A DNA stretch of 64,000 bases from Escherichia coli (GTDB lineage Bacteria > Pseudomonadota > Gammaproteobacteria > Enterobacterales > Enterobacteriaceae). Made by a program: the position numbers and the translations under genes. Under the pieces are notes generated by a model. That model was given only the letters and a program-made list of their open reading frames with translations, was not told where the DNA came from and did no database searches. This document shows positions 924 to 43,330 of this stretch, piece by piece; position 1 is the first letter of the stretch, and every line of letters starts with the position of its first letter. The stretch lies in the NCBI RefSeq assembly GCF_036507355.1, contig NZ_AP027877.1. One strand, 5' to 3'.

Positions 924-2564
924 TCACACCGTAGCGAAACTAACTTGTTCACCCGCTCCGCGAGGTTCTGCCGACACAGAATGTTTGTTCAGACGGAATA
1001 CGTCCACCGCCTCAGTTAATCGTGCAGCCTGTTCTTCAAGGGACACCGCCGCTGCTGAGGCCTCTTCTACCAGAGAAGCATTCTGTTGCGTCACCTTATC
1101 CATTTCAGAAATCGCCTGGCTAACCTGAGTTATGCCTCTACTTTGCTCATCCGAGGCGGCGGCGATTTCCTGCATGATATGTGTGACACTCGCGACGGCA
1201 TCAACAATAGTGCTCATGGTTTTCCCGGCCGTTGCCACCTCATCCGATCCCAGGTCAATTAACCTGACTGATTCACTGATCAAGCCTTCAATCTCTTTCG
1301 CCGCCTGGGCGCTGCGGCTTGCGAGTGTCCGTACTTCGCTGGCGACAACGGCAAATCCACGCCCTTGCTCACCCGCTCGCGCAGCTTCAACGGCAGCATT
1401 CAGTGCCAGAATATTCGTCTGGAAAGCAATACTGTTGATGACGGCGGTGATCTCAGAAATTTTCTTCGAACTCATAGAGATAGCACCCATCGTTTTTACT
1501 ACCCCGGAAACCGTCTGCCCGCCATCGCTGGCTTTAATAGAAGCCTCTTGCGCCAGTTTGCTGGCATGATGCGCGTTATCCGCATTCTGTTTCACCGTCG
1601 CAGTGAGTTGCTCCATGCTGGCGGCAGTTTGTTCGATAGCCGCCGCTTGTTCTTCGGTGCGAGATGAAAGGTCCGCATTGCCAGCGGAAATTTCGCTGGT
1701 GCCACGATAAATCTCTTCCGCGCCCTGTCGAACAGTCCCTACTGTCATCCCCAGTGAATGCTGCATTTGCTGTAAATGACGACTTAAGCGACCGATTTCA
1801 TTACGACCCGCCGGTTCATCATTCATCGTCAGATCGCCACTGGCGATTTTTTCAATCCGTTGTGCGGCATGTTGCAGTGGACGAATGACGATCTGCCGTA
1901 GCACCATAAATGTTATCAGCGTCATGACCAGGGCAAGCACAAACGCGCCAATCATGAACATCCCACCCACGCGGGTGCGCTGATGGGCCAGTTCCGCCAG
2001 TTGGTTGGCTCTGGTGCTACGTATCTTAACGGCTTTGTTCAAAATATCGGTATAAGCATTATCCAGCGTTCGGATCTGCTCACTTTCATGATTGATAATT
2101 GCTTCAAACATACCATTTTTGGCATATTTCAACATAGGTTGCATACCCGTGATATAAGCCTGAAAGCGTTGATTTAATTCAGTGTCGAGGGCTTCATCAG
2201 CAGGTGTTTTCACCGGCCGATTCTGATAAGCACGATAACCTTGCTGCGACTGTTTAATCTCCGATTCGGCTTGCGCAATATTTCGCTTCATTGCTTCCAT
2301 TTCCGCAATACGACTCGCAGCCCCGGCCTGAATCATATTGATCCGGGCTGAACGCAAAAAATCTGAACTGTTCGCTAACCCGGTCCGAATCTCAATCTCC
2401 GCAGTAACATCACGCTGATCGCGATCGGCCTGCCAGAGGAAATAGCCAGCCAGGGCTGAACTTAATGCGAATAGAACTAAGATACCGCCTAGAATGCAGG
2501 CAAATAACGGAACCAACCTGATGTGATGCAAAAAACCTAATCGCTGTGAGGGAGTTGTATTCAT
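924..2564 (-). CDS. trg: Methyl-accepting chemotaxis protein (ribose/galactose sensor type)
   Basis: 546-aa ORF with two TM segments, HAMP region and the conserved MCP signalling/methylation region (…[28 protein letters not shown]…); synteny. Confidence 0.85.
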
Positions 2565-2904
2565 TACCGTTGTCTCTCGTCTAGGTTTACTCCTGATAGA
2601 AAGTCATCGGCATTTGACGGTAATTACTTACGACTAAAAGCCTCTTTGCGTCACATTTTTACAACAATTATTGCAGAGAAGATTAATGCCATTGGAATGA
2701 AGAGAGTAACGAATGGTTAAACTGGCTAACCCGAATGACGAAAAATTCTGGAAAACAGCACGCAATTTCGTCAGGTGATTATTTTCGTCCCTAAGGAAAC
2801 CACATAGGATGCTCACGGGTGCCTGAGACTTTCTGTTTTCAGGCTAACCGGGAATCAGAAAGACGAAGGCCCCGACCGATATTTCTATCAACCGAGGCCA
2901 ACGA

Positions 2905-3112
<208 letters not shown>

Positions 3113-4320: not shown

Positions 4321-5322
4321 ATGAGTAAAGTTGGTATTAACGGTTTTGGTCGTATCGGTCGACTGGTGTTGCGTCGTTTACTTGAAGTCAAAAGCAACAT
4401 AGACGTTGTCGCTATTAATGATCTTACTTCCCCAAAAATTCTCGCCTATCTGCTGAAACATGATTCAAACTATGGTCCGTTCCCCTGGAGCGTTGATTTT
4501 ACGGAAGATTCACTTATCGTTGATGGGAAAAGTATCGCGATTTACGCCGAAAAAGAGGCTAAAAATATTCCGTGGAAAGCGAAAGGGGCAGAAATCATTG
4601 TCGAATGTACTGGCTTTTATACCTCCGCCGATAAATCGCAGGCGCATCTTGATGCTGGTGCGAAGAAGGTGTTGATTTCCGCTCCTGCCGGTGAAATGAA
4701 AACCATCGTTTATAACGTTAATGACGACACTCTGGATGGCAACGACACCATTGTTTCCGTGGCGTCATGCACCACTAACTGCCTTGCGCCGATGGCCAAA
4801 GCCTTGCATGACAGTTTCGGGATAGAAGTCGGCACGATGACGACCATTCATGCCTATACTGGCACCCAGTCACTGGTGAATGGCCCGCGTGGTAAAGATT
4901 TACGTGCTTCACGCGCAGCGGCAGAAAATATCATTCCCCACACTACGGGGGCGGCAAAAGCCATTGGTCTGGTGATCCCGGAACTGAGCGGCAAACTGAA
5001 AGGTCATGCGCAACGCGTGCCGGTGAAAACAGGTTCGGTCACTGAGCTGGTGTCCATTCTCGGAAAAAAAGTGACTGCCGAAGAGGTGAATAACGCACTT
5101 AAACAAGCAACCACCAATAACGAGTCATTTGGTTATACCGATGAAGAAATAGTCTCTTCCGATATCATTGGCAGCCATTTCGGTTCAGTGTTTGATGCCA
5201 CGCAAACGGAAATTACCGCCGTGGGCGATTTACAACTGGTGAAAACGGTCGCCTGGTACGATAACGAATATGGCTTCGTCACGCAGCTTATTCGCACCCT
5301 CGAAAAATTCGCTAAACTCTGA
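4321..5322 (+). CDS. gapC: Glyceraldehyde-3-phosphate dehydrogenase, apparently intact
   Basis: 333-aa uninterrupted ORF with NAD-binding [10 protein letters not shown] and catalytic [10 protein letters not shown] motifs. Confidence 0.85.
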
Positions 5323-18478: not shown

Positions 18479-19246
18479 GGTAATGACTCCAACTTATTGA
18501 TAGTGTTTTATGTTCAGATAATGCCCGATGACTTTGTCATGCAGCTCCACCGATTTTGAGAACGACAGCGACTTCCGTCCCAGCCGTGCCAGGTGCTGCC
18601 TCAGATTCAGGTTATGCCGCTCAATTCGCTGCGTATATCGCTTGCTGATTACGTGCAGCTTTCCCTTCAGGCGGGATTCATACAGCGGCCAGCCATCCGT
18701 CATCCATATCACCACGTCAAAGGGTGACAGCAGGCTCATAAGATGCCCCAGCGTCGCCATCGTGCGTTCACCGAATACGTGCGCAACAACCGTCTTCCGG
18801 AGCCTGTCATACGCGTAAAACAGCCAGCGCTGGCGCGATTTAGCCCCGACATAGCCCCACTGTTCGTCCATTTCCGCGCAGACGATGACGTCACTGCCCG
18901 GCTGTATGCGCGAGGTTACCGACTGCGGCCTGAGTTTTTTAAGTGACGTAAAATCGTGTTGAGGCCAACGCCCATAATGCGGGCTGTTGCCCGGCATCCA
19001 ACGCCATTCATGGCCATATCAATGATTTTCTGGTGCGTACCGGGTTGAGAAGCGGTGTAAGTGAACTGCAGTTGCCATGTTTTACGGCAGTGAGAGCAGA
19101 GATAGCGCTGATGTCCGGCGGTGCTTTTGCCGTTACGCACCACCCCGTCAGTAGCTGAACAGGAGGGACAGCTGATAGAAACAGAAGCCACTGGAGCACC
19201 TCAAAAACACCATCATACACTAAATCAGTAAGTTGGCAGCATCACC
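18479..19246 (-). mobile_element. insAB: IS1 (768 bp), copy 1, minus orientation; insA 18916..19191, insB' 18494..18997
   Basis: Both terminal inverted repeats recognised (GGTGATGCTGCCAACTTACTGAT… and …AAGTTGGAGTCATTACC); InsA/InsB ORFs; flanking 9-mers differ (attagatcg vs cacgtcggt), so no target-site duplication. Confidence 0.9.
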
Positions 19247-21479
19247 CACGTCGGTATCAGCCGTTTTGTTTGTGTTGCTAAATGCAATCGAACGGCTACT
19301 GTCAAGGTTGTGAACGTCATAACGCAATGCGTTATTCCAGTTCATGCCGTTGTCGAAGGACATCTGATGTTTCAGGCCAAAGAACTGGCTATAACCACCT
19401 GTGACGCCATTATCACCCGCTTTCTGCGCACCATCACCATCGAGACGAGCGATACCGTATTCCAGGCTCATGCTCTGGCTTTCGCTCAGGTCAACGGTTT
19501 TACGCAGTGCCAGCATGTCATACTCGGTGTTATTTCCGAGTTCCTCACGCGGGTCACCTTTCGCCACCACGTTAAAGGCCAGGCCATTGCCCACCTTCGG
19601 CGCGGCATCCGCCAGCATGCTGAAGCGGTTGCTTAACATACGCGCTTCACGGAATACCGTGGTCGCCTGGCTACCGCTCACCTGCTTCAGGGCGCTATTC
19701 AGTTCAGCAGTGGTGCCCACGTTCAGGCTGGTATACAGCTCGTTATTGGTGTAACCCGCATCCAGTGCCTTCGCCACATCGTTCACCGAAGCATCGGTCG
19801 CCACATCGGTGTAGGCGTTTTTGCTCATGATGACGTCAACGTTGCCGCTGGCATCGGTGCTGCCTTTGGCGGTCCATACCACGGACGTTGAGGTGATGGC
19901 ATCGGCGTCGGTCAGGTTGATGCCTTCCACCACGTTGTCGAAACTGACCGTGGTGTCTGCCGTACCGGCGGCGAAACCGGTGTTGATCCCGACACCATTC
20001 ATGCTGGCGTTGTTGACCTTCAGTTTACCGGCGCTGCCGTCAACGTTGGTACCGACGATATAGCCGTTGAGGTTGTTACTGCTGCCATCGCTACTACCGC
20101 TATCAGTCGTTTCACTGAAAGGTGAAGTGGTGTAAGTGTTTGGCATGTCCGGCAACGTGTAGTCGGTGTAATGCACTTCGGTATTGTTACCGCTGTTGCC
20201 GTTCACCCCTTCCACATTCACGCTGTCGCCCTGCTTAATCAACCCCGAACCAGTCACGCCGTCGGCAATCACCACCGTACCGTTGTTAACGATATGACCT
20301 TCTGTGCCCAGTACGCTGAACGCAAACGAGTCGTTAGCAAAAATATTGATCGTGCCGTTGTTCTCAATTACCGCATCGGCGGTGGCATTGGCATCCAGTT
20401 GCATACCAGTCAATCCGGTATCGGTGGTGCCTTCGGTACCGAGATTGATAACACCGTTGTTAACCAGCTGTGCGTTTTTATCGCCTTCCATCGCCACGGC
20501 GTTGTTGCCGCTGATGTTCATTACACCATCGTTGAGAGCAACATAGTTGTTGTGGGTGAATTTAACCGCGCTGGCGTTGTCTTTATCGAAGTTAATTACC
20601 CCGCCATCCTGGTTCCACAAGAAGGCATCGCTTTCTGTCGCACCGGCAGTACTTACCGCCACGGTGACTTTCGCATCCACCACGCCCTTGTTAATAAACT
20701 GGCTGGCGCCATCGTCATAGTGAATAGCGCCCGCACCTAATGCGGCATCCAGCGTCATTTCACCGGTGTTATATAACGTGGCGTTAGCATTGCTGCCCTG
20801 GAAGCGAATGGCGTTTTTGCTGTTATCAAGGATGAGTTTGCCGCTGTTGTTGAACGTTGACTTATCGTCAATATCCAGCGTCCCGGCATTGTTGTTTTCA
20901 TCCTGATAACCCATTTTCCAGGTACCCGCGTTATTCACTACCGCAGAGTTATAGAGAATCGCGCCTTTACGCGCCTCGCCGCCTGCAAGGTTATTGAATA
21001 CCGCATCGCCCTGAGCGTTAACGCGCGCCGACGCAATACCGCTGTTATTCACCGTACCATCGTGAAGTTGTAAAGTTGACAGGGAACCGGTGTTATTAAT
21101 TACCGCGTTGCTGTTTTTCTCAATTTTTACGACGTCATTAAGCGTTCCGTTGTTATTGAAGGTCCCTCCTTCCAAAGTCACCGTGTTCAATACACCTTCA
21201 TTGGTTAACGCACCGCCTGCATTCACGACGATGGCTGAGCTAATGGTTCCGCTCGACTCGTTAACCAGCGCACCATTTTCGAGTATCCTGATCGTTCCAT
21301 TTTTAACAGCACCCGCACTGGTGACATCCCCGTTGATAATCGCACCAGACGATAATAATACGGTCTCACCCGCAGAACTTAATACATCGCCATCATCATA
21401 CAAATCGGCGATATAATTATCCGTCGGATTATATTCATCGGCCCCCTGGCAAACCCCAAAGGTACAAATGGTGCCATAG
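19247..21479 (-). pseudogene. ydbA: Internal fragment of autotransporter adhesin passenger domain (ydbA-like)
   Basis: Asn/Gly/Thr-rich beta-helix-type repeats (…NNGTLN…VNNSG…). The apparent start (TTG) and last 8 codons (GDAANLLI*) are encoded by IS1 ends, so this is not an intact gene. Confidence 0.7.
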
Positions 21480-22247
21480 GGTGATGCTGCCAACTTACTG
21501 ATTTAGTGTATGATGGTGTTTTTGAGGTGCTCCAGTGGCTTCTGTTTCTATCAGCTGTCCCTCCTGTTCAGCTACTGACGGGGTGGTGCGTAACGGCAAA
21601 AGCACCGCCGGACATCAGCGCTATCTCTGCTCTCACTGCCGTAAAACATGGCAACTGCAGTTCACTTACACCGCTTCTCAACCCGGTACGCACCAGAAAA
21701 TCATTGATATGGCCATGAATGGCGTTGGATGCCGGGCAACAGCCCGCATTATGGGCGTTGGCCTCAACACGATTTTACGTCACTTAAAAAACTCAGGCCG
21801 CAGTCGGTAACCTCGCGCATACAGCCGGGCAGTGACGTCATCGTCTGCGCGGAAATGGACGAACAGTGGGGCTATGTCGGGGCTAAATCGCGCCAGCGCT
21901 GGCTGTTTTACGCGTATGACAGGCTCCGGAAGACGGTTGTTGCGCACGTATTCGGTGAACGCACGATGGCGACGCTGGGGCGTCTTATGAGCCTGCTGTC
22001 ACCCTTTGACGTGGTGATATGGATGACGGATGGCTGGCCGCTGTATGAATCCCGCCTGAAGGGAAAGCTGCACGTAATCAGCAAGCGATATACGCAGCGA
22101 ATTGAGCGGCATAACCTGAATCTGAGGCAGCACCTGGCACGGCTGGGACGGAAGTCGCTGTCGTTCTCAAAATCGGTGGAGCTGCATGACAAAGTCATCG
22201 GGCATTATCTGAACATAAAACACTATCAATAAGTTGGAGTCATTACC
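21480..22247 (+). mobile_element. insAB: IS1 (768 bp), copy 2, plus orientation; insA 21535..21810, insB' 21729..22232
   Basis: Terminal IRs at both ends; flanking 9-mers differ (gtgccatag vs ctggactta); inverted relative to copy 1. Confidence 0.9.
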
Positions 22248-22357
22248 CTGGACTTACGTGTTTTTTCGGTTGAGTCGGGTATTGAAGTATCCGCAGCCCA
22301 TGTCTGGCTACTTAACGCCATGGCAACACAAACAGACAATAATTTTTTCCTTTGCAT
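22248..22357 (-). pseudogene. ydbA: 5' end of autotransporter gene (signal peptide) cut by IS1
   Basis: Minus-strand ATG at 22355-22357 gives MQRKKLLSVCVAMALSSQTWAADTSIPDSTEKT… (signal peptide) and runs into IS1 copy 2 after about 36 codons. Confidence 0.55.
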
Positions 22358-22764
22358 ATAAAATTCCTTAGATCTAGACCGTGCGTAACAAGCCATGCAG
22401 AATTTGAAGATAAATCGTAGTAAATATTCATAGTGAAATAAGCAATAAAGAAATGCTTATATAATTCACAAAATCAATATTAAAATCAGGCAAGTAAAAG
22501 CATACAAAAAAACAGTTGATGGAATTATATTCCACAAAAAACTCACTTCAATCTAAAAATTAACGACAAAAAACAAAAACACACTAATAATTCATTGACG
22601 CTGCATATATATTTTGTGATTACATATATATTGGTAATGATTTGTTATTTAAGGGAAGGATATATAAGGTTTTTGTAGAAATATCCACGGTAATTAAGCA
22701 TGCTAACGTCAGTTTAAATACTGTAAAAGATCATTAATAGATACATTTTGTAGCCAACTATAAT

Positions 22765-23091
22765 TTATTTGCGCAACCATTTACCATTAATTCCCTGAAC
22801 ATATTGCCCCGACTTCGCGCGAGCAACAAGCTTTTGTCCAGCCAGTTTGGCTATCTCTTTAGTGGATACATTATTTTGCTTTGCCAGTTGTTGGTAACTA
22901 TGGTTACGAGCTTCATTAATATCTTTTACTAATGCCTGTGTTTCGGCATCCGTTTGTAGCGCCACCAGGTAACCGTTAAGCGTTTCACCTACCCGCCCCT
23001 GACTTCTGGCTTCGTTCAGGGTTAAAGCCATTGCACTGTCGCTCATCAGGCCAATGGCCCATACAGCTATGAGTAATGTTCTTTTCATCAT
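22765..23091 (-). CDS. ydbL: DUF1318-family periplasmic protein
   Basis: Start chosen at the internal Met giving a 108-aa signal-peptide protein (MKRTLLIAVWAIGLMSDSAMA…); last gene of ydbH-ynbE-ydbL. Confidence 0.7.
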   Translation of the reverse strand: MMKRTLLIAVWAIGLMSDSAMALTLNEARSQGRVGETLNGYLVALQTDAETQALVKDINEARNHSYQQLAKQNNVSTKEIAKLAGQKLVARAKSGQYVQGINGKWLRK

Positions 23092-23095
23092 CACC

Positions 23096-23281
23096 TCAAA
23101 ATAGATCGCTACGGGTTTTGAGCAGGTCTTCAACGTCCTTATCCGCTTTAATGATGATTTCATGCTCAATTTTAACGTTCATATTAATGGTGATTGGCTC
23201 TTTCGGCGCAGCCACTTCAATGCGAGGCGTGCAACCAACCAACATAAAAGAGGACGCAAACGCGGCTATCACTATTTTCAT
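23096..23281 (-). CDS. ynbE: Small lipoprotein
   Basis: 61-aa ORF with lipobox (…FMLVGC…); overlaps the ydbH stop by 4 nt. Confidence 0.75.
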   Translation of the reverse strand: MKIVIAAFASSFMLVGCTPRIEVAAPKEPITINMNVKIEHEIIIKADKDVEDLLKTRSDLF

Positions 23282-25917
23282 TGTTTTTCCTCACACTCTT
23301 TTCCTGATGGGCAGCCAGTTTCCGGTAGCTGGGCATTCTGCTCCAGCCATACCTGGAGATTATCGCCAAAGCGTAAACTGCGCCATAACGTAAAAATATT
23401 CTCTTCATGGTGATAATTAAGGTTTACCGTACCGCTTTTACCATCGACGCGACTGGTGCCCGAAATGTTGGCCTGCATGGTTAACACACCGAGATTATCT
23501 AAATTAATCCTTGTTGATGAGCGACTGATTTCCATATAACGCAACCAGTTGATGGCAGTTCCAGCGGTCATATTGTCTTTGGCCACCGCATCTGCAGTGT
23601 CTTTATCCAGACGCAGCGTCATCGGCCCCGCGTTTGCCAACCAGCCATCTTTGACAATCCATTTTTCATTGTTCAGCCATAGTGGCAAGGCCCCACTGAA
23701 TGCCCCAGACATGGCGAATTGTTTCGGATTGACGGCGCTAACCAGTTCGCTGGATGAGAGATTATTCAGCCGCAACAGCGCCGGGTCATGTTGCGGCATA
23801 CGTAATTGTTTCATCAGCACGTTACCGCCTAACACATCGACGCTAACATCAGTCAACAGCAATGGTTCTTCTTCAGTCCACGGATAACGCCCTTGCAAAT
23901 CAGCCGTAATATTTTTCGCTGTCACCAGATTAATCACTTCGGCAATTCGCAACGTAACGGGGCCGCGAGTCCCAAGATGCCAGGCTCCATCGGCAAAACG
24001 GAAAGGCAGGACAAAATCGACACCGTTAACCTGATTATCTGGCATCCAGGCACTACCGCCTTTCAACACGCCGTGCCCTCCCGCGCGGAATCCTTGTTCA
24101 GGCGCAGCAGAAAATGCAACCTGAGCATACAGTTCACCATCGCGTAAGTTCATCTTCCAGTCGGGTGGCACCAGCGGCTGGAATACAGTCAGTGATTGTT
24201 TAGGCCACCAGGCGTTACCGCGCAGACGAATACCGTCCCAGCGACCATTTACCCGAACCGGGCCAATCTCACCAGCATGTAAATCGCCTTTAAAGAGGAA
24301 ATACGTCGGATCGCGCCCATCGACGCTAAATTTTAAGGTTGATGGCGGTAACACACTGCCGCCAGTGAACAGCGTTTGCCCGGCGTCCAGTGACAGCGCG
24401 CCGCTGAAGGAGGGATGCTGTGCGTCACGTACCCAGACGACGGGCTTGTCGAGAATTAATCGCGGCTTTTCTACCGTCATCGTACCGTATTGTAGCTGGT
24501 CGAAACCGGTGGAGAGATCGGTCAGCGTAATCGTGCTGTCATGCCACTCACCTTTTCCTGCGACATCCCAGGTGGCATTCATCGGTGTAAAACTCCCTTT
24601 TCCCCAGTAGCGCCACTGCCAGCGGCCAGCGTCAGGGAGAAAATCATTCGCCAGCCCATCCATATGCAGCACGAAATCGCCCAGTTCATTTTCATGCGCC
24701 TGCAAAATGGCCTGCAAACGTCCGTCAACACCACGTTGGGTGACTTTTACACCCGCTAAAGGCCAGCGGATTTCATCGATGTCCAGCGAATCGATGACTC
24801 TTCCCTTTGAACGAAGTAACGCGCCTGGCTCAAAGGTCAGCGTTGGGTCAGACAGACTTCCACTTACCTGCGCAGGTAAACGGGCATATAAAATGAGGTC
24901 CGCCTGTTTCGCTTCACCGGTCAGCTGCAGAGGCAGCTGGCTGTTATCCATGCTTAATTTTCCTGGGCCAAAATTAAGCACCGCGTTGCCCTTACCCGCT
25001 TGCCCCTGGGTCAGCACACTCAGTCGTCCGCTGACCAGAGCGTTCTCAAGCCCTGCCTGCCAGTTGTCGACTTTGACACCCAGTCGGCCACTCAAAGGAA
25101 AACCTGCATACGGCCAGCTCCAGCGACCATCGCTTACGGTCAATTGTTGACGCGTAATTTGCCACGGCAAATCGAGCAACGGATCGCCGTTATCCCGTGC
25201 CAGCACGATCAATTGCCCGCTATTTTCCTGCCAGTCCAGCTCTGCATCCACCAGTGACGGTTCCTGCGGCAAGTTTAACGTCGCAGTAGCATGCCCACTT
25301 ACAGGAAGTCCATCCGGCACGAGCGGCATAGTAAATTCCCCCACCAGTTTAACCGGCGGCTGATTTTCAAACGCGACGACATCCAGCTCGCTGACTGTAA
25401 GTTGTTGCCCTTTCAGCTGGCCTTGAAATTTAACTTTTTCGCCCTGATAACGCAGTTGCTGGATATCAGAGGTTAATGCGAGAGAGAGTTTTCCCTGCCA
25501 TTCCTGCCAGGGAGAAAAAATCAGTTTATCGATATTGATCCAGGTGTTAGGCAGCATGGACTGCCACTGCGCGAGGGTTTTTGGAGCAGCTGGCGATTGC
25601 TCCGTCTGCGGCAATTTCGCCAGACAAGCAGAATCAAGTTCTACCGTGCCGACGTTCAATAACCAGCGGCTGGGATGTGAAAGGCTGGCGTTGGTGATAT
25701 GCGCAAGCTGACAATCTCCCACCAGATAACGGAGATCGGGAATGATTAAACCTTTACGCGTAATGCGTGGGCTTTCATCTAATGCAATACGTGTCCCGAG
25801 CGGTAGCCAGATGCCCGCCAGCGTGGGAACCCACAGCCCGAGCGTCATCAGCAGCGTCAACGGCACAAGAATAATCAGTAATAACAGCGCGAGAACGGCT
25901 TTATATTTACCCAGCAT
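23278..25917 (-). CDS. ydbH: AsmA-like large envelope protein
   Basis: 879-aa ORF with N-terminal TM anchor; operon with ynbE and ydbL. Confidence 0.8.
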   Translation of the reverse strand: MLGKYKAVLALLLLIILVPLTLLMTLGLWVPTLAGIWLPLGTRIALDESPRITRKGLIIPDLRYLVGDCQLAHITNASLSHPSRWLLNVGTVELDSACLAKLPQTEQSPAAPKTLAQWQSMLPNTWINIDKLIFSPWQEWQGKLSLALTSDIQQLRYQGEKVKFQGQLKGQQLTVSELDVVAFENQPPVKLVGEFTMPLVPDGLPVSGHATATLNLPQEPSLVDAELDWQENSGQLIVLARDNGDPLLDLPWQITRQQLTVSDGRWSWPYAGFPLSGRLGVKVDNWQAGLENALVSGRLSVLTQGQAGKGNAVLNFGPGKLSMDNSQLPLQLTGEAKQADLILYARLPAQVSGSLSDPTLTFEPGALLRSKGRVIDSLDIDEIRWPLAGVKVTQRGVDGRLQAILQAHENELGDFVLHMDGLANDFLPDAGRWQWRYWGKGSFTPMNATWDVAGKGEWHDSTITLTDLSTGFDQLQYGTMTVEKPRLILDKPVVWVRDAQHPSFSGALSLDAGQTLFTGGSVLPPSTLKFSVDGRDPTYFLFKGDLHAGEIGPVRVNGRWDGIRLRGNAWWPKQSLTVFQPLVPPDWKMNLRDGELYAQVAFSAAPEQGFRAGGHGVLKGGSAWMPDNQVNGVDFVLPFRFADGAWHLGTRGPVTLRIAEVINLVTAKNITADLQGRYPWTEEEPLLLTDVSVDVLGGNVLMKQLRMPQHDPALLRLNNLSSSELVSAVNPKQFAMSGAFSGALPLWLNNEKWIVKDGWLANAGPMTLRLDKDTADAVAKDNMTAGTAINWLRYMEISRSSTRINLDNLGVLTMQANISGTSRVDGKSGTVNLNYHHEENIFTLWRSLRFGDNLQVWLEQNAQLPETGCPSGKECEEKQ

Positions 25918-31100: not shown

Positions 31101-31708
31101 GTCTGGATCATGTATTGAGTTTGACGGAAAACGTCAACATTCTGGTGCTGGATACGCAATGCTATTCCAACACCGGTGGTCAGGCGTCGAAAGCGACACC
31201 GCTGGGTGCAGTAACTAAATTTGGCGAGCACGGCAAACGTAAAGCGCGTAAAGATCTTGGCGTCAGTATGATGATGTACGGTCATGTTTATGTGGCGCAG
31301 ATTTCTCTCGGCGCGCAACTGAACCAGACGGTGAAAGCGATTCAGGAAGCGGAAGCGTATCCGGGGCCATCGCTGATCATCGCTTATAGCCCATGTGAAG
31401 AGCATGGTTACGATCTGGCACTCAGCCATGACCAGATGCGCCAACTCACAGCTACCGGCTTCTGGCCGCTATATCGCTTCGATCCGCGTCGTGCCGATGA
31501 AGGCAAACTGCCGCTGGCGCTGGATTCACGCCCGCCGTCAGAAGCACTGGAAGAAACGTTACTTCACGAGCAACGTTTCCGTCGGCTGAATTCGCAGCAG
31601 CCAGAAGTGGCAGAACAGTTATGGAAAGATGCTGCAGCTGATTTGCAAAAACGCTATGACTTCCTGGCACAAATGGCCGGAAAAGCGGAAAAAAGCAACA
31701 CCGATTAA
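28184..31708 (+). CDS. ydbK: Pyruvate:flavodoxin/ferredoxin oxidoreductase
   Basis: 1174-aa ORF with two 4Fe-4S ferredoxin motifs (CTQCNHCVAACP, CTGCNLCVEVCP) and a TPP-binding region. Confidence 0.9.
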   Translation: MITIDGNGAVASVAFRTSEVIAIYPITPSSTMAEQADAWAGNGLKNVWGDTPRVVEMQSEAGAIATVHGALQTGALSTSFTSSQGLLLMIPTLYKLAGELTPFVLHVAARTVATHALSIFGDHSDVMAVRQTGCAMLCAANVQEAQDFALISHIATLKSRVPFIHFFDGFRTSHEINKIVPLADDTILDLMPQAEIDAHRARALNPEHPVIRGTSANPDTYFQSREATNPWYNAVYDHVEQAMNDFSAATGRQYQPFEYYGHPQAERVIILMGSAIGTCEEVVDELLTRGEKVGVLKVRLYRPFSAKHLLQALPGSVRSVAVLDRTKEPGAQAEPLYLDVMTALAEAFNNGERETLPRVIGGRYGLSSKEFGPDCVLAVFAELNAAKPKARFTVGIYDDVTNLSLPLPENILPNSAKLEALFYGLGSDGSVSATKNNIKIIGNSTPWYAQGYFVYDSKKAGGLTVSHLRVSEQPIRSAYLISQADFVGCHQLQFIDKYQMAERLKPGGIFLLNTPYSADEVWSRLPQEVQAVLNQKKARFYVINAAKIARECGLAARINTVMQMAFFHLTQILPGDSALAELQGAIAKSYSSKGQDLVERNWQALALARESVEEVPLQPVNPHSANRPPVVSDAAPDFVKTVTAAMLAGLGDALPVSALPPDGTWPMGTTRWEKRNIAEEIPIWKEELCTQCNHCVAACPHSAIRAKVVPPEAMENAPASLHSLDVKSRDMRGQKYVLQVAPEDCTGCNLCVEVCPAKDRQNPEIKAINMMSRLEHVEEEKINYDFFLNLPEINRSKLERIDIRTSQLITPLFEYSGACSGCGETPYIKLLTQLYGDRMLIANATGCSSIYGGNLPSTPYTTDANGRGPAWANSLFEDNAEFGLGFRLTVDQHRVRVLRLLDQFADKIPAELLTALKSDATPEVRREQVTALRQQLNDVAEAHELLRDADALVEKSIWLIGGDGWAYDIGFGGLDHVLSLTENVNILVLDTQCYSNTGGQASKATPLGAVTKFGEHGKRKARKDLGVSMMMYGHVYVAQISLGAQLNQTVKAIQEAEAYPGPSLIIAYSPCEEHGYDLALSHDQMRQLTATGFWPLYRFDPRRADEGKLPLALDSRPPSEALEETLLHEQRFRRLNSQQPEVAEQLWKDAAADLQKRYDFLAQMAGKAEKSNTD

Positions 31709-31737
31709 ATGCTCTGGATAAGGATTATCCAATTCTA

Positions 31738-31846
31738 AAAAAAAGCCCGGACGACTGTTCGGGCTTGTCTTTTTATATGTTGGAAAATCAGTGGCAATGC
31801 AATGGCCCAACAGAAAATAAAATCTGTGACAATAAAGGCATATAAC
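31738..31846 (-). ncRNA. micC: MicC small RNA (porin regulator), divergent from ompN
   Basis: Minus strand reads GTTATATGCCTTTATTGTCACAGATTTTATTTTCTGTTGGGCCATTGCATTGCCACTGATTTTCCAACATATAAAAAGACAAGCCCGAACAGTCGTCCGGGCTTTTTTT, matching MicC as I recall it, ending in a hairpin plus T-run. Confidence 0.8.
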
Positions 31847-32073
31847 CCGCGCAGAATAACGTATAGAAAATTAAAAGTATAATTTTTATTTTGTATGTAT
31901 TATCTTCGATACATTCACCAGACTTATTATCATTTCAGAAGAATTATTTGATTAAGGTTTTACTTAAGGCGTAACAAATGATATTTATCGGCTAACTGAA
32001 CTTCTCCTTTAGGATGTTTTCACTCCCCGAAATGGGGATAAAAGGCAAATAAAATAACTAAAGGATTTATTCA

Positions 32074-33207
32074 ATGAAAAGCAAAGTACTGGCACTTTTA
32101 ATTCCTGCCCTGCTCGCCGCAGGTGCTGCACATGCAGCCGAAGTTTATAATAAAGACGGCAACAAATTAGATCTGTATGGCAAAGTTGATGGCCTGCATT
32201 ATTTTTCAGATAATTCGGCGAAAGATGGCGACCAGAGCTATGCGCGTCTGGGTTTTAAAGGCGAAACCCAAATTAACGATCAACTTACTGGCTACGGTCA
32301 ATGGGAATACAATATTCAGGCAAACAACACTGAATCTTCAAAAAACCAGTCATGGACCCGTCTGGCATTTGCCGGACTGAAATTTGCAGATTACGGTTCT
32401 TTCGATTACGGACGTAATTATGGCGTAATGTACGACATCGAAGGCTGGACCGATATGCTGCCTGAATTTGGCGGTGACTCTTATACCAATGCAGACAACT
32501 TTATGACTGGTCGAGCCAATGGCGTCGCGACTTATCGTAATACTGATTTCTTCGGTCTGGTAAATGGTCTGAACTTCGCGGTGCAGTATCAAGGTAACAA
32601 CGAAGGAGCCAGTAATGGTCAGGAAGGCACCAACAACGGACGTGATGTTCGCCATGAAAACGGTGACGGCTGGGGTCTTTCCACAACATATGATTTAGGC
32701 ATGGGCTTTAGCGCTGGTGCGGCATACACCTCTTCTGACCGCACCAATGACCAGGTTAACCATACTGCGGCGGGTGGTGATAAAGCAGACGCGTGGACTG
32801 CTGGGCTAAAATACGATGCTAACAATATTTACCTGGCAACCATGTATTCAGAAACGCGTAATATGACCCCGTTTGGCGACAGCGATTATGCTGTTGCAAA
32901 CAAAACCCAGAACTTTGAAGTCACTGCACAGTACCAGTTTGATTTTGGTCTGCGTCCGGCAGTCTCTTTCCTGATGTCTAAAGGCCGTGACCTGCACGCT
33001 GCCGGTGGTGCAGACAACCCGGCAGGTGTTGATGATAAAGATCTGGTTAAATACGCCGATGTTGGCGCGACTTACTATTTCAATAAAAACATGTCCACTT
33101 ATGTTGACTATAAAATCAACCTGTTGGATGAAGATGACAGTTTCTACGCTGCCAACGGCATCTCTACCGATGATATTGTCGCTTTAGGTCTGGTTTATCA
33201 GTTCTAA
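32074..33207 (+). CDS. ompN: Outer membrane porin (OmpC/OmpF family)
   Basis: 377-aa ORF with signal peptide ([21 protein letters not shown]), porin beta-strand pattern and C-terminal …LVYQF. Confidence 0.85.
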
Positions 33208-37138: not shown

Positions 37139-38596
37139 TTAGGAGCGCCAAAAAAAACCTGAAAACAATATAATAACAGGATAAATTTCAAGGCGACCAA
37201 GAATCATAGCTATGCACATTAAACATTTTGCAATGTCATTAAGCACTCCGAATGACGATGCAGTAGCCCCAAAACCTAATCCCATATTATTAATACATGC
37301 AGCCACTGTTGCAAATGATGTAAGAAAATCATATCCCATACCATTTAACACCAGTATAAAAAACACCGTGAAGAGAGTATAAAGAAAAAAGAAACTCCAT
37401 ACAGACCTCATTACACGATCTGTAACTATCTTCCCTCCTACATTTACACTCAACAACGCTCTGGGATGAGAAAGCTGATTTATCTCGTGTTTGCTTTGTT
37501 TGAAAAGTATAAGAAATCGAAGTGACTTAATTCCACCACAAGTTGAACCTATACATCCCCCAAAGAAACTTGACAACAGCAAAAACACTATCGTGTGCGT
37601 GGGCCAACTTGCATAATCCTGCGTAGCTAAACCATTATCAGTGAGCATGGAGCTGGCAAGAAAAAACGAATGAATAAAACTTCCATGCAAGTCATACATA
37701 CCTATATGCCAGACCTGGAAAGAGGTAACAATGATCACCCCTAAGGCTATTAACAGAAAGAAACGAAGTTCAATATCTCTGATTAAAGGTTTTATCGTTT
37801 TCCTGCTAATAACAATATACCAAAGAGTGAAGTTGAAAGCCGATAGCAGGGAAAAAGAACCAGCCACCAGCTCAACCAAATAGTTATTAAAATATCCGAT
37901 ACTCTCGCTATGAGTTGAGAAACCACCAAGCGAAACTGTGGAAATCCCGTGACAAATAGCATCAAACAAAGGCATTCCTGCAAGTCTATAACAGACAATA
38001 CAAGCAATACCTAATAAAGAATAAGTTATCCACAGTGTCCGTGACGTATCGGCCAGGCGGGGAGTGAGTTTGTCATCCTTAAATGGCCCCGGCATTTCTG
38101 ACTGATAAAGCTTTGCACCACCAATACCCAATAATGGCAATACAGCAACCGCCAGAACAATAACTCCTAAACCACCTATAAAATTTAACTGTGACCGATA
38201 GTACAAATATGCCCGAGGTAATGAACTAACATCATCAATTACAGTTGCTCCTGTTGTTGTTATTCCAGAAACCCCTTCAAACAGAGCATCAATGAACGTT
38301 AAATTAAGTTCTGAGTCAATCCATAAAGGGAATGCACTAATAACAGAAAACAAAATCCAAAACATTACAATTATAATAAACCCATCACGGGTACGTAATT
38401 GAATGCCAGATTTCTTAGTTGTATACCACGCTCCGCCACCAATGCAAAAAAATATAACGAAAGTTATAAAGAAAACGAACAGGCTTTTTTCTTTATAAAA
38501 CAATGCTACAACCATTGGTGGCAACATTGAAAGACTATAGAGCCAAACCAGGAACCCACACATATGAGTAACAACTCTTACATGAGATGTATTCAT
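37139..38596 (-). CDS. trkG: Trk-system potassium uptake protein (prophage cargo)
   Basis: 485-aa multi-TM TrkH/TrkG-family ORF from the internal ATG (MNTSHVRVVTH…). Confidence 0.8.
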   Translation of the reverse strand: MNTSHVRVVTHMCGFLVWLYSLSMLPPMVVALFYKEKSLFVFFITFVIFFCIGGGAWYTTKKSGIQLRTRDGFIIIVMFWILFSVISAFPLWIDSELNLTFIDALFEGVSGITTTGATVIDDVSSLPRAYLYYRSQLNFIGGLGVIVLAVAVLPLLGIGGAKLYQSEMPGPFKDDKLTPRLADTSRTLWITYSLLGIACIVCYRLAGMPLFDAICHGISTVSLGGFSTHSESIGYFNNYLVELVAGSFSLLSAFNFTLWYIVISRKTIKPLIRDIELRFFLLIALGVIIVTSFQVWHIGMYDLHGSFIHSFFLASSMLTDNGLATQDYASWPTHTIVFLLLSSFFGGCIGSTCGGIKSLRFLILFKQSKHEINQLSHPRALLSVNVGGKIVTDRVMRSVWSFFFLYTLFTVFFILVLNGMGYDFLTSFATVAACINNMGLGFGATASSFGVLNDIAKCLMCIAMILGRLEIYPVIILFSGFFWRS

Positions 38597-38733
38597 ATCT
38601 AAATATTCTTTCAATTATAACCACCTTGCTGCAATATTATGATTATACTGTATAAAATTTAACTCCTCTTAGATCTTACTTCACTGTTCCTTATGAAACA
38701 ATCATCAAAATGAATCATATTGTAGTTAAGATT

Positions 38734-38862
38734 TTACTTTAAACACTGCTCGGTTATGTATTGCTGAGCACCTTCAAGTTGGGCCTGCATCATTACCAGT
38801 CGTTCCCGGAGGGTGAAATAATCCCGTTCAGCGGTGTCTGCCAGTCGGGGGGAGGCTGCATT
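38734..38862 (-). pseudogene. rzpR: 3' ends of phage lysis genes Rz/Rz1 (rzpR/rzoR-like), 5' parts replaced by IS3
   Basis: Minus-strand translation …ADTAERDYFTLRERLVMMQAQLEGAQQYITEQCLK*, with an embedded +1-frame proline-rich Rz1 tail (…QPPPDWQTPLNGIISPSGNDW*). Confidence 0.65.
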
Positions 38863-42346: not shown

Positions 42347-43330
42347 ATGAGAAAAATTATGAGATATGACAATGTTGGTGATGCTGCCAACTTACTGATT
42401 TAGTGTATGATGGTGTTTTTGAGGTGCTCCAGTGGCTTCTGTTTCTATCAGCTGTCCCTCCTGTTCAGCTACTGACGGGGTGGTGCGTAACGGCAAAAGC
42501 ACCGCCGGACATCAGCGCTATCTCTGCTCTCACTGCCGTAAAACATGGCAACTGCAGTTCACTTACACCGCTTCTCAACCCGGTACGCACCAGAAAATCA
42601 TTGATATGGCCATGAATGGCGTTGGATGCCGGGCAACAGCCCGCATTATGGGCATTGGCCTCAACACGATTTTACGTCACTTAAAAAACTCAGGCCGCAG
42701 TCGGTAACCTCGCGCATACAGCCGGGCAGTGACGTCATCGTCTGCGCGGAAATGGACGAACAGTGGGGCTATGTCGGGGCTAAATCGCGCCAGCGCTGGC
42801 TGTTTTACGCGTATGACAGGCTCCGGAAGACGGTTGTTGCGCACGTATTCGGTGAACGCACGATGGCGACGCTGGGGCGTCTTATGAGCCTGCTGTCACC
42901 CTTTGACGTGGTGATATGGATGACGGATGGCTGGCCGCTGTATGAATCCCGCCTGAAGGGAAAGCTGCACGTAATCAGCAAGCGATATACGCAGCGAATT
43001 GAGCGGCATAACCTGAATCTGAGGCAGCACCTGGCACGGCTGGGACGGAAGTCGCTGTCGTTCTCAAAATCGGTGGAGCTGCATGACAAAGTCATCGGGC
43101 ATTATCTGAACATAAAACACTATCAATAAGTTGGAGTCATTACCGACAATGTTAAACCATGTCCATTTTGTGGTTGTCCATCAGTAACGGTGAAAGCCAT
43201 TTCAGGATATTACCGAGCGAAGTGTAACGGATGCGAATCCCGAACCGGTTATGGTGGAAGTGAAAAAGAAGCACTCGAAAGATGGAATAAACGAACCACT
43301 GGAAATAATAATGGAGGTGTTCATGTATAA
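42347..43330 (+). pseudogene. ralR: lar/ralR (restriction alleviation; type I TA toxin) interrupted by IS1
   Basis: 5' codons (MRKIMRYDNV) at 42347..42376 and the remainder (…KPCPFCGCPSVTVKAISGYYRAKCNGCESRTGYGGSEKEALERWNKRTTGNNNGGVHV*) at 43145..43330, separated by IS1 with a duplicated GACAATGTT. Confidence 0.7.
42377..43144 (+). mobile_element. insAB: IS1 (768 bp), copy 3, simple insertion; insA 42432..42707, insB' 42626..43129
   Basis: Terminal IRs present; perfect 9-bp target-site duplication GACAATGTT at 42368..42376 and 43145..43153. Confidence 0.9.

Follow-up and report, generated by a model that had tools for sequence, protein, structure and literature searches.

What is the long AT-rich gap that precedes the autotransporter gene bigA/ydbA in an Escherichia coli chromosome in which that gene has been destroyed: a control region that has outlived its target, or a mere spacer? 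In the window (the whole stretch of DNA analysed, 64 kb) the minus-strand gene order is ydbH-ynbE-ydbL, the AT-rich gap and the bigA/ydbA signal peptide. The three upstream genes lie at 23278-25917 (ydbH), 23096-23281 (ynbE, between the other two) and 22765-23091 (ydbL, the last of them; DUF1318, Pfam E = 1e-30), and they encode a TamB/AsmA-like envelope protein, its lipoprotein partner and what RefSeq annotates as a probable chaperone, respectively. They run head-to-tail with the autotransporter gene, and no intrinsic terminator stands between. The ydbL stop codon ends at 22765 and the bigA/ydbA ATG occupies 22357-22355 on the minus strand, so that the gap extends exactly from 22358 to 22764; we refer to it below as the tract and presume it to comprise a promoter, a 5' leader and a target of H-NS. 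The ATG at 22357 is the same start as that annotated by RefSeq in intact alleles, and it opens MQRKKLLSVCVAMALSSQTWAADTS..., a typical signal peptide. The first-pass annotation had placed the gap between ydbL and the ydbA signal-peptide start, with transcription directed into an IS1; names, order and geometry were all confirmed. We consider it fairly probable that the tract represents the native 5' regulatory region of bigA/ydbA, presumably silenced by H-NS, that it was imported together with its bigA allele, and that it is now orphaned.

The most conspicuous property of the tract is its composition. Its 407 bp contain 177 A, 121 T, 55 G and 54 C, a GC content of 26.8% compared to 48.4% for the 64-kb window (A+T, 73.2% and 51.6%, respectively). 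An AT-rich gap of approximately 400 bp had been pointed out here from the letters alone, and it indeed proved to be the lowest-GC 407-bp stretch in the 64 kb: equally AT-rich segments make up 0.08% of all segments of this length, and each of them overlaps the tract. The next GC troughs of the window reach 30.7% and 32.4%, which are the values of two other AT-rich stretches, at 38254-38742 and 31681-32103, respectively; the latter is situated just upstream of an ORF (32074-33207) which, judging by the gene order of strain 48, is probably ompN. Ten-mers with at least eight A/T account for half of the tract, as against 8.8% window-wide.

The homopolymer runs and TATA-like repeats that the earlier reading had emphasized do exist: A7 at 22506-22512, two A6, two A5 and one T5 are present, and (AT)4 occurs twice, within the direct repeat CATATATATT at 22604-22613 and 22623-22632. 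As a signal going beyond composition, however, they did not stand, as the tract has 26 A-tracts (shuffles, 21.0 +/- 3.1) and 51 TpA steps (shuffles, 52.7 +/- 4.4), both near chance for a sequence of this composition. The inverted and direct repeats are such as chance would give, each being short, AT-rich and present in two copies, and a search of the tract for tandem repeats and for terminal inverted repeats found neither. The signal of the tract therefore resides in its composition and not in repeats. The A-tract centres (22360-22749) display a weak 10.5-bp phasing, reached by 1.2% of the shuffles with eight periods tested, which could be a sign of intrinsic curvature.

The best sigma-70-like match in the tract is found at 22524-22551 on the minus strand, with a -35 element TTGAAG (22551-22546), a 16-nt spacer and a -10 element TATAAT (22529-22524). 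This is the sole 10/12 match in the surrounding 19.9 kb, and it is oriented toward bigA. The predicted -10 ends 166 nt before the bigA ATG, which would place the start of transcription near 22517 and yield a leader of approximately 160 nt. A Shine-Dalgarno sequence, AAGGA, can be read at 22365-22369 (minus strand), 7 nt upstream of the ATG, and is kept in the alleles of E. whittamii, Escherichia sp. E1V33 and O157. In the alignment with E. whittamii, identity is 76% in the SD-ATG block and 75% in the -35/-10 block, the latter ranking within the top 5% of 28-nt windows, as opposed to 58% for the tract as a whole; the better conservation of these two blocks, in what is a single diverged homologue, lends modest support to the predicted promoter. 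The promoter proposed upon first reading is thereby represented by a plausible sigma-70 candidate (10/12, minus strand, directed at bigA), and the tract most likely holds the promoter and the 5' leader of the autotransporter gene, as far as can be judged from its sequence.

Between the putative promoter and the gene lies a T-run (22506-22512, minus strand; the A7 of the plus strand), the length of which varies in alignments of different strains from T6 (E1V33) through T7 (the window) and T8 (O157 strain 472) to T9 (O157 Al Ain). Because the run is located downstream of the predicted -10, its length does not affect the promoter spacing. The O157:H7 alleles also carry a 5-bp TAATG duplication just after ydbL (approximately 22736), outside the -35/-10 spacer.

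The tract is present in a single copy. Of 5426 complete E. coli genomes, 374 (O157:H7, O55:H7 and a scattering of other strains) carry it at 97.6-99.8% identity. It is absent from K-12-type genomes; in K-12, the 19-kb feaR-feaB-tynA-paa segment lies between ydbL and ydbA, and the tract has no detectable homology to either the ydbL-feaR or the paaY-ydbA gap of that strain. The fea-tynA-paa locus has been described as a heterogeneous region (PMC4951805). Where the allele is intact, a gap of likewise 407 bp precedes a BigA of 1951-1961 aa. In other genera the usual neighbour downstream of ydbL is feaR; the ydbL-bigA adjacency was encountered in this Escherichia haplotype and in none of at least 50 other Enterobacterales loci.

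The origin of this arrangement is indicated by a comparison with two references. The identity of the window to K-12 is 99% through ydbH up to approximately 23700; beyond this point it falls to about 84%, then to 71-79% in ydbL, and in the gap it becomes undetectable. Relative to Escherichia sp. E1V33 the pattern is reversed, with 87% identity in ydbH and 99.7% from approximately 23700 to the start of bigA. This switch, down for K-12 and up for E1V33 at the same position, identifies ydbL, gap and bigA of the window, on the strength of these alignments, as DNA, free of the fea-tynA-paa cluster, that came in from another Escherichia lineage through homologous recombination, with a sharp crossover within the 3' part of ydbH at about 23700; the tract is by the same token horizontally exchanged DNA. 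The retained imported haplotype block (22248-23700, minus strand) is composed of the 3' part of ydbH, ynbE, ydbL, the tract and the start of bigA, and it is 99.7% identical to E1V33 and 82% identical to K-12. The K-12 version of the block is 94.9% identical to that of Escherichia sp. MOD1-EC7003, and the adjoining part of ydbH 93.4%.

A more distant homologue of the tract was identified in E. whittamii, where it is colinear without large indels and has a GC content of 30.5% (alignment z = 23.7, 58% identity). The representative of that species (locus 4325-5012) has kept the tract and approximately 34 codons of the bigA signal peptide, while the remainder of bigA is deleted and pdxI follows some 180 bp further on. 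As the tract survives there without bigA, its persistence is no proof of function.

This bears on the alternative to which we assign the largest share of the remaining probability, although we regard it as rather unlikely: that the tract is an inert spacer, neutrally drifting AT-rich DNA with no dedicated promoter, and that an intact bigA would be silent or read through from ydbH-ynbE-ydbL. An identity of 58% to E. whittamii is approximately what neutral drift would produce, the A-tracts and TpA steps are at the level expected from composition, and no intrinsic terminator separates ydbL from bigA. A simple consensus scan detected 6.8 promoter-like sites per kb in the tract compared to 0.9 per kb outside it, but the three sites concerned are no more common than in composition-matched shuffles (2.9 +/- 1.7), and promoter matches may be a by-product of AT-richness. 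What speaks for a regulatory region nevertheless is that the 10/12 sigma-70 match is correctly oriented, unique within 20 kb and embedded in a conserved block, that the length and colinearity of the tract have been kept between species without large indels, and that its positional analogue in K-12 binds both RNA polymerase and H-NS in vivo (PMC3661553).

Silencing of the tract by H-NS, argued largely by analogy, is a reasonable assumption and the likeliest reading. Two traits of H-NS targets are found here: a high A+T content over hundreds of base pairs (73.2% over 407 bp) and a location within horizontally exchanged DNA. The high-affinity H-NS 10-mer used in the scan, tCG(t/a)T(a/t)AATT, is reportedly the nucleation consensus of Lang et al. 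2007; it has one 9/10 match in the tract, at 22557-22566, beside the predicted -35, and is not enriched, with 24 matches window-wide compared to an expected 20.7 +/- 5.1. The literature on ydbA, bigA and ydbL yielded no ChIP or expression data for the allele carried by the window. For K-12, the region upstream of ydbA is one of the 78 promoter islands of Shavkunov/Panyukov and Ozoline, a class called with PlatProm from an extreme density of overlapping promoter-like start points over 300 bp or more. Such islands bind RNA polymerase yet yield little full-length transcript, and their coverage by H-NS is heavy. H-NS binding to the ydbA region is recorded in the ChIP data of both Kahramanoglou and Oshima, and the upstream regions of two further K-12 autotransporter genes, yfaL and ycgV, are also listed among the islands (PMC3661553). 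Transcription of K-12 ydbA is low and can be de-repressed, with a 7.7-fold increase in an rpoZ mutant (PMC5811629), and for uropathogenic E. coli, repression of autotransporter genes by H-NS has been reported (PMC3966885).

The gene that the tract precedes has been destroyed. An intact BigA contains BigA_N and BigA_beta domains and matches the NCBIfam model auto_BigA; in the window, all that follows the tract is a chimeric stub ORF of 43 codons (22226-22357, minus strand), of which 36 are derived from bigA and the last seven, together with the stop codon, from the right end of an IS1. The bigA part of the stub (22248-22357) encodes the signal peptide MQRKKLLSVCVAMALSSQTWA and 15 additional residues, and the stop is at 22226. 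The IS1 itself (21480-22247, plus strand) is 768 bp long, has both inverted repeats, the right one directly adjoining the stub, and contains insA (21535-21810) and insB' (21729-22232). A 9-bp target duplication is absent at this element, which is flanked by GTGCCATAG on one side and CTGGACTTA on the other, and 3042 bp of bigA are missing beside it in comparison with strain 48. Because the flanks differ and this part of bigA is missing, the element marks an IS1-associated deletion or rearrangement and not a simple insertion. On its far side there is an internal bigA fragment (19247-21479, minus strand), which corresponds to positions 1239-1714 of the auto_BigA model NF033178 and is devoid of both the N-terminus and the C-terminal end; this is followed by a second, inverted IS1 (18479-19246, minus strand; 99.87% identical), which replaces the 3' end of bigA, pdxI and the 5' part of ydbD. 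The bigA/ydbA gene of the window is thus a pseudogene, truncated twice by IS1.

In all, the window contains three IS1 copies (18479-19246, 21480-22247 and 42377-43144), which are 99.87-100% identical. The first two are inverted relative to each other, flank the 2.2-kb internal fragment of bigA, toward which their left ends point, and each adjoin a deletion (3.0 and 3.1 kb compared to strain 48). The junction between IS1 and bigA was found in 0 of 5,426 complete E. coli genomes, and contigs with an identical YdbH also lack it; exact-protein matches to the stub and to the bigA fragment were likewise absent. Together with the three IS1 copies, the absence from complete genomes may indicate a Shigella-like or IS-rich E. 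coli lineage. In the E. coli CUWW06 locus, an independent IS1 (2235-3001) is situated inside the tract, at the equivalent of window position 22449, and has removed the 91 bp of the tract nearest to bigA together with the whole of bigA, pdxI and the 5' part of ydbD. As the junctions of this IS1 differ from those in the window, the locus has been struck by IS1 more than once.

It had also been suggested that the tract would drive transcription into the nearer IS1. The geometry for this is right: transcripts leaving the tract would enter the element at its right inverted repeat and run antisense to insB and then to insA. Such antisense transcription is geometrically possible. The antisense IS1 RNA has a C/G ratio of 1.3-1.56, below the 90th percentile of the window (1.57), which points to a moderate Rho-loading potential; by IS1 polarity, untranslated RNA past the stop codon of the stub would probably be terminated by Rho.

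The preferred reading of the tract as an imported, probably silenced and now orphaned regulatory region would thus proceed as follows. A sigma-70 promoter near 22551-22524 (minus strand), followed by an AAGGA site and a leader length of about 160 nt, would be embedded in approximately 400 bp of DNA with 73% A+T; H-NS (and StpA) would coat this DNA and hold the adhesin gene in a silent state that an anti-silencer or changed conditions could lift. Tract and bigA allele came jointly from another Escherichia lineage through homologous recombination, and two IS1-associated deletions have since destroyed bigA and left the region an orphan. Residual transcription would now yield the 43-residue signal-peptide stub only, and then an untranslated RNA passing through IS1, antisense to insB and insA, and probably stopping early.

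Two other scenarios are concerned with the genes upstream. In the first, which we hold to be improbable, the tract is a boundary or termination zone for ydbH-ynbE-ydbL, H-NS-assisted or Rho-dependent, that insulates bigA; a promoter in the tract would be compatible with such a role. No intrinsic terminator was found after ydbL, and an RNA fold of the region 3' of this gene was no more stable than shuffles (z = -0.46), so that some mechanism must end the operon transcript, which would include 407 nt of untranslated RNA. The sense RNA is T-rich, however, with a C content of 10-19% over most of the tract and a C/G ratio of 0.8-1.3, and would be a poor substrate for Rho loading. In the second scenario, to which we attach a distinctly smaller chance, the tract would act as a conditional gate, an H-NS-coated spacer that sets the extent of read-through from ydbH-ynbE-ydbL into bigA, with ydbL, gate and bigA moving from one Escherichia species to another as one recombination cassette. 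Read-through into bigA is conceivable because ydbL has no intrinsic terminator, and if the gate existed, an autotransporter adhesin would be coupled to a TamB-like machine.

We consider it very improbable that the tract conceals a small protein gene or a small RNA. The analogous gap in K-12 does contain the 21-aa ynbG, and several ORFs of 12-39 codons are present in the tract. None of these is credible as a gene, however: no ORF exceeds 39 aa, none is preceded by a Shine-Dalgarno sequence, and there is no similarity to the ynbG region. An internal ORF of 35 codons was considered as a candidate and rejected, as in E. whittamii it runs into a stop codon after 12 codons, and as the T6-T9 polymorphism shifts its reading frame. 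The covariance models of Rfam 15, run on both strands of 21000-24000, returned zero matches at E<=1, and neither the fold of the putative bigA leader (z = +1.06) nor that of the region 3' of ydbL mentioned above was more stable than shuffles. The description of the tract as non-coding has therefore withstood scrutiny. The least probable explanation, a mobile-element relic (phage, plasmid, IS or MITE) or a scar of fea-tynA-paa loss, might be suggested by the position of the tract where K-12 has its 19 kb of fea-tynA-paa, in a published region of heterogeneity (PMC4951805) at a locus repeatedly struck by IS1, but the tract is single-copy, has neither terminal inverted nor tandem repeats and no similarity to either K-12 junction, and a plasmid or phage origin was rejected upon finding zero matches among 72,556 plasmids and 50,697 phages.

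Taken together, these results describe an unremarkable AT-rich region upstream of a variable adhesin gene, probably a silenced promoter, with no sequence relationship to its K-12 counterpart. It joins the many AT-rich, probably H-NS-covered regions that precede variable adhesin genes of E. coli, in this case one the gene of which is dead. The tract itself is of lesser interest than its inter-species import, the repeated damage by IS1 and the convergence in composition, none of which would surprise a specialist. The two alleles of bigA/ydbA have non-homologous upstream regions that are nevertheless both of approximately 25-27% GC, which suggests that composition, and not sequence, is what persists. 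A control region with the appearance of a silenced one moves from one Escherichia species to another along with its adhesin gene, through homologous recombination, and the bigA locus is a recurrent target of IS1-associated deletions. For annotation, the message is that ydbA is here a doubly IS1-truncated pseudogene.

Several known systems resemble parts of this locus. The IS1 adjacent to the stub has the features of an IS1 insertion accompanied by an adjacent deletion, namely a length of 768 bp, inverted repeats, insA/insB', a one-sided loss of host DNA and a position in which outside transcription would enter the element. A simple IS1 insertion is defined by a 9-bp target duplication, and it is in lacking this duplication that the window element differs from one. 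The regulatory region of Ag43 (flu) is, like the tract, the upstream region of an AIDA-type E. coli autotransporter adhesin; its phase variation via Dam and OxyR needs three clustered GATC sites in the OxyR site. The tract, in contrast, has two GATC sites situated 358 bp apart (22371 and 22729). A phase-variable switch was considered for the tract and rejected: its GATC sites are not clustered, its T6-T9 run lies downstream of the -10, and it has no tandem repeats.

The likeness is greater with the H-NS-silenced promoters of adhesin genes such as upaC, ehaG/upaG, F9 and the cryptic chaperone-usher fimbriae, in which an AT-rich region likewise precedes a variable, exchanged adhesin gene and for which a low basal expression is expected (PMC3966885). 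The cases of the upaC, ehaG/upaG and F9 type are founded on de-repression in hns mutants and on gel shifts, whereas that of the tract is founded on composition and analogy, with its target gene destroyed.

The closest parallel by position is the K-12 paaY/ydbA promoter island. The sequences of the two are unrelated, as a local alignment of the tract with the K-12 ydbA gap (1563-1892 of the K-12 locus) revealed no significant similarity (z = 1.5). Their upstream neighbours also differ, paaY in K-12 and ydbL in the window, and the tract lacks both the 21-aa ynbG and the two terminator-like hairpins of the K-12 gap. Binding of H-NS and RNA polymerase has been measured for the K-12 gap, while the tract is known from its sequence. 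What the two share is their place, directly upstream of the ydbA/bigA signal peptide, and their dimensions and composition, 330-385 bp at 25.2% GC in K-12 and 407 bp at 26.8% GC here; common to both is also their setting, in horizontally acquired DNA in front of a pseudogene disrupted by insertion sequences.
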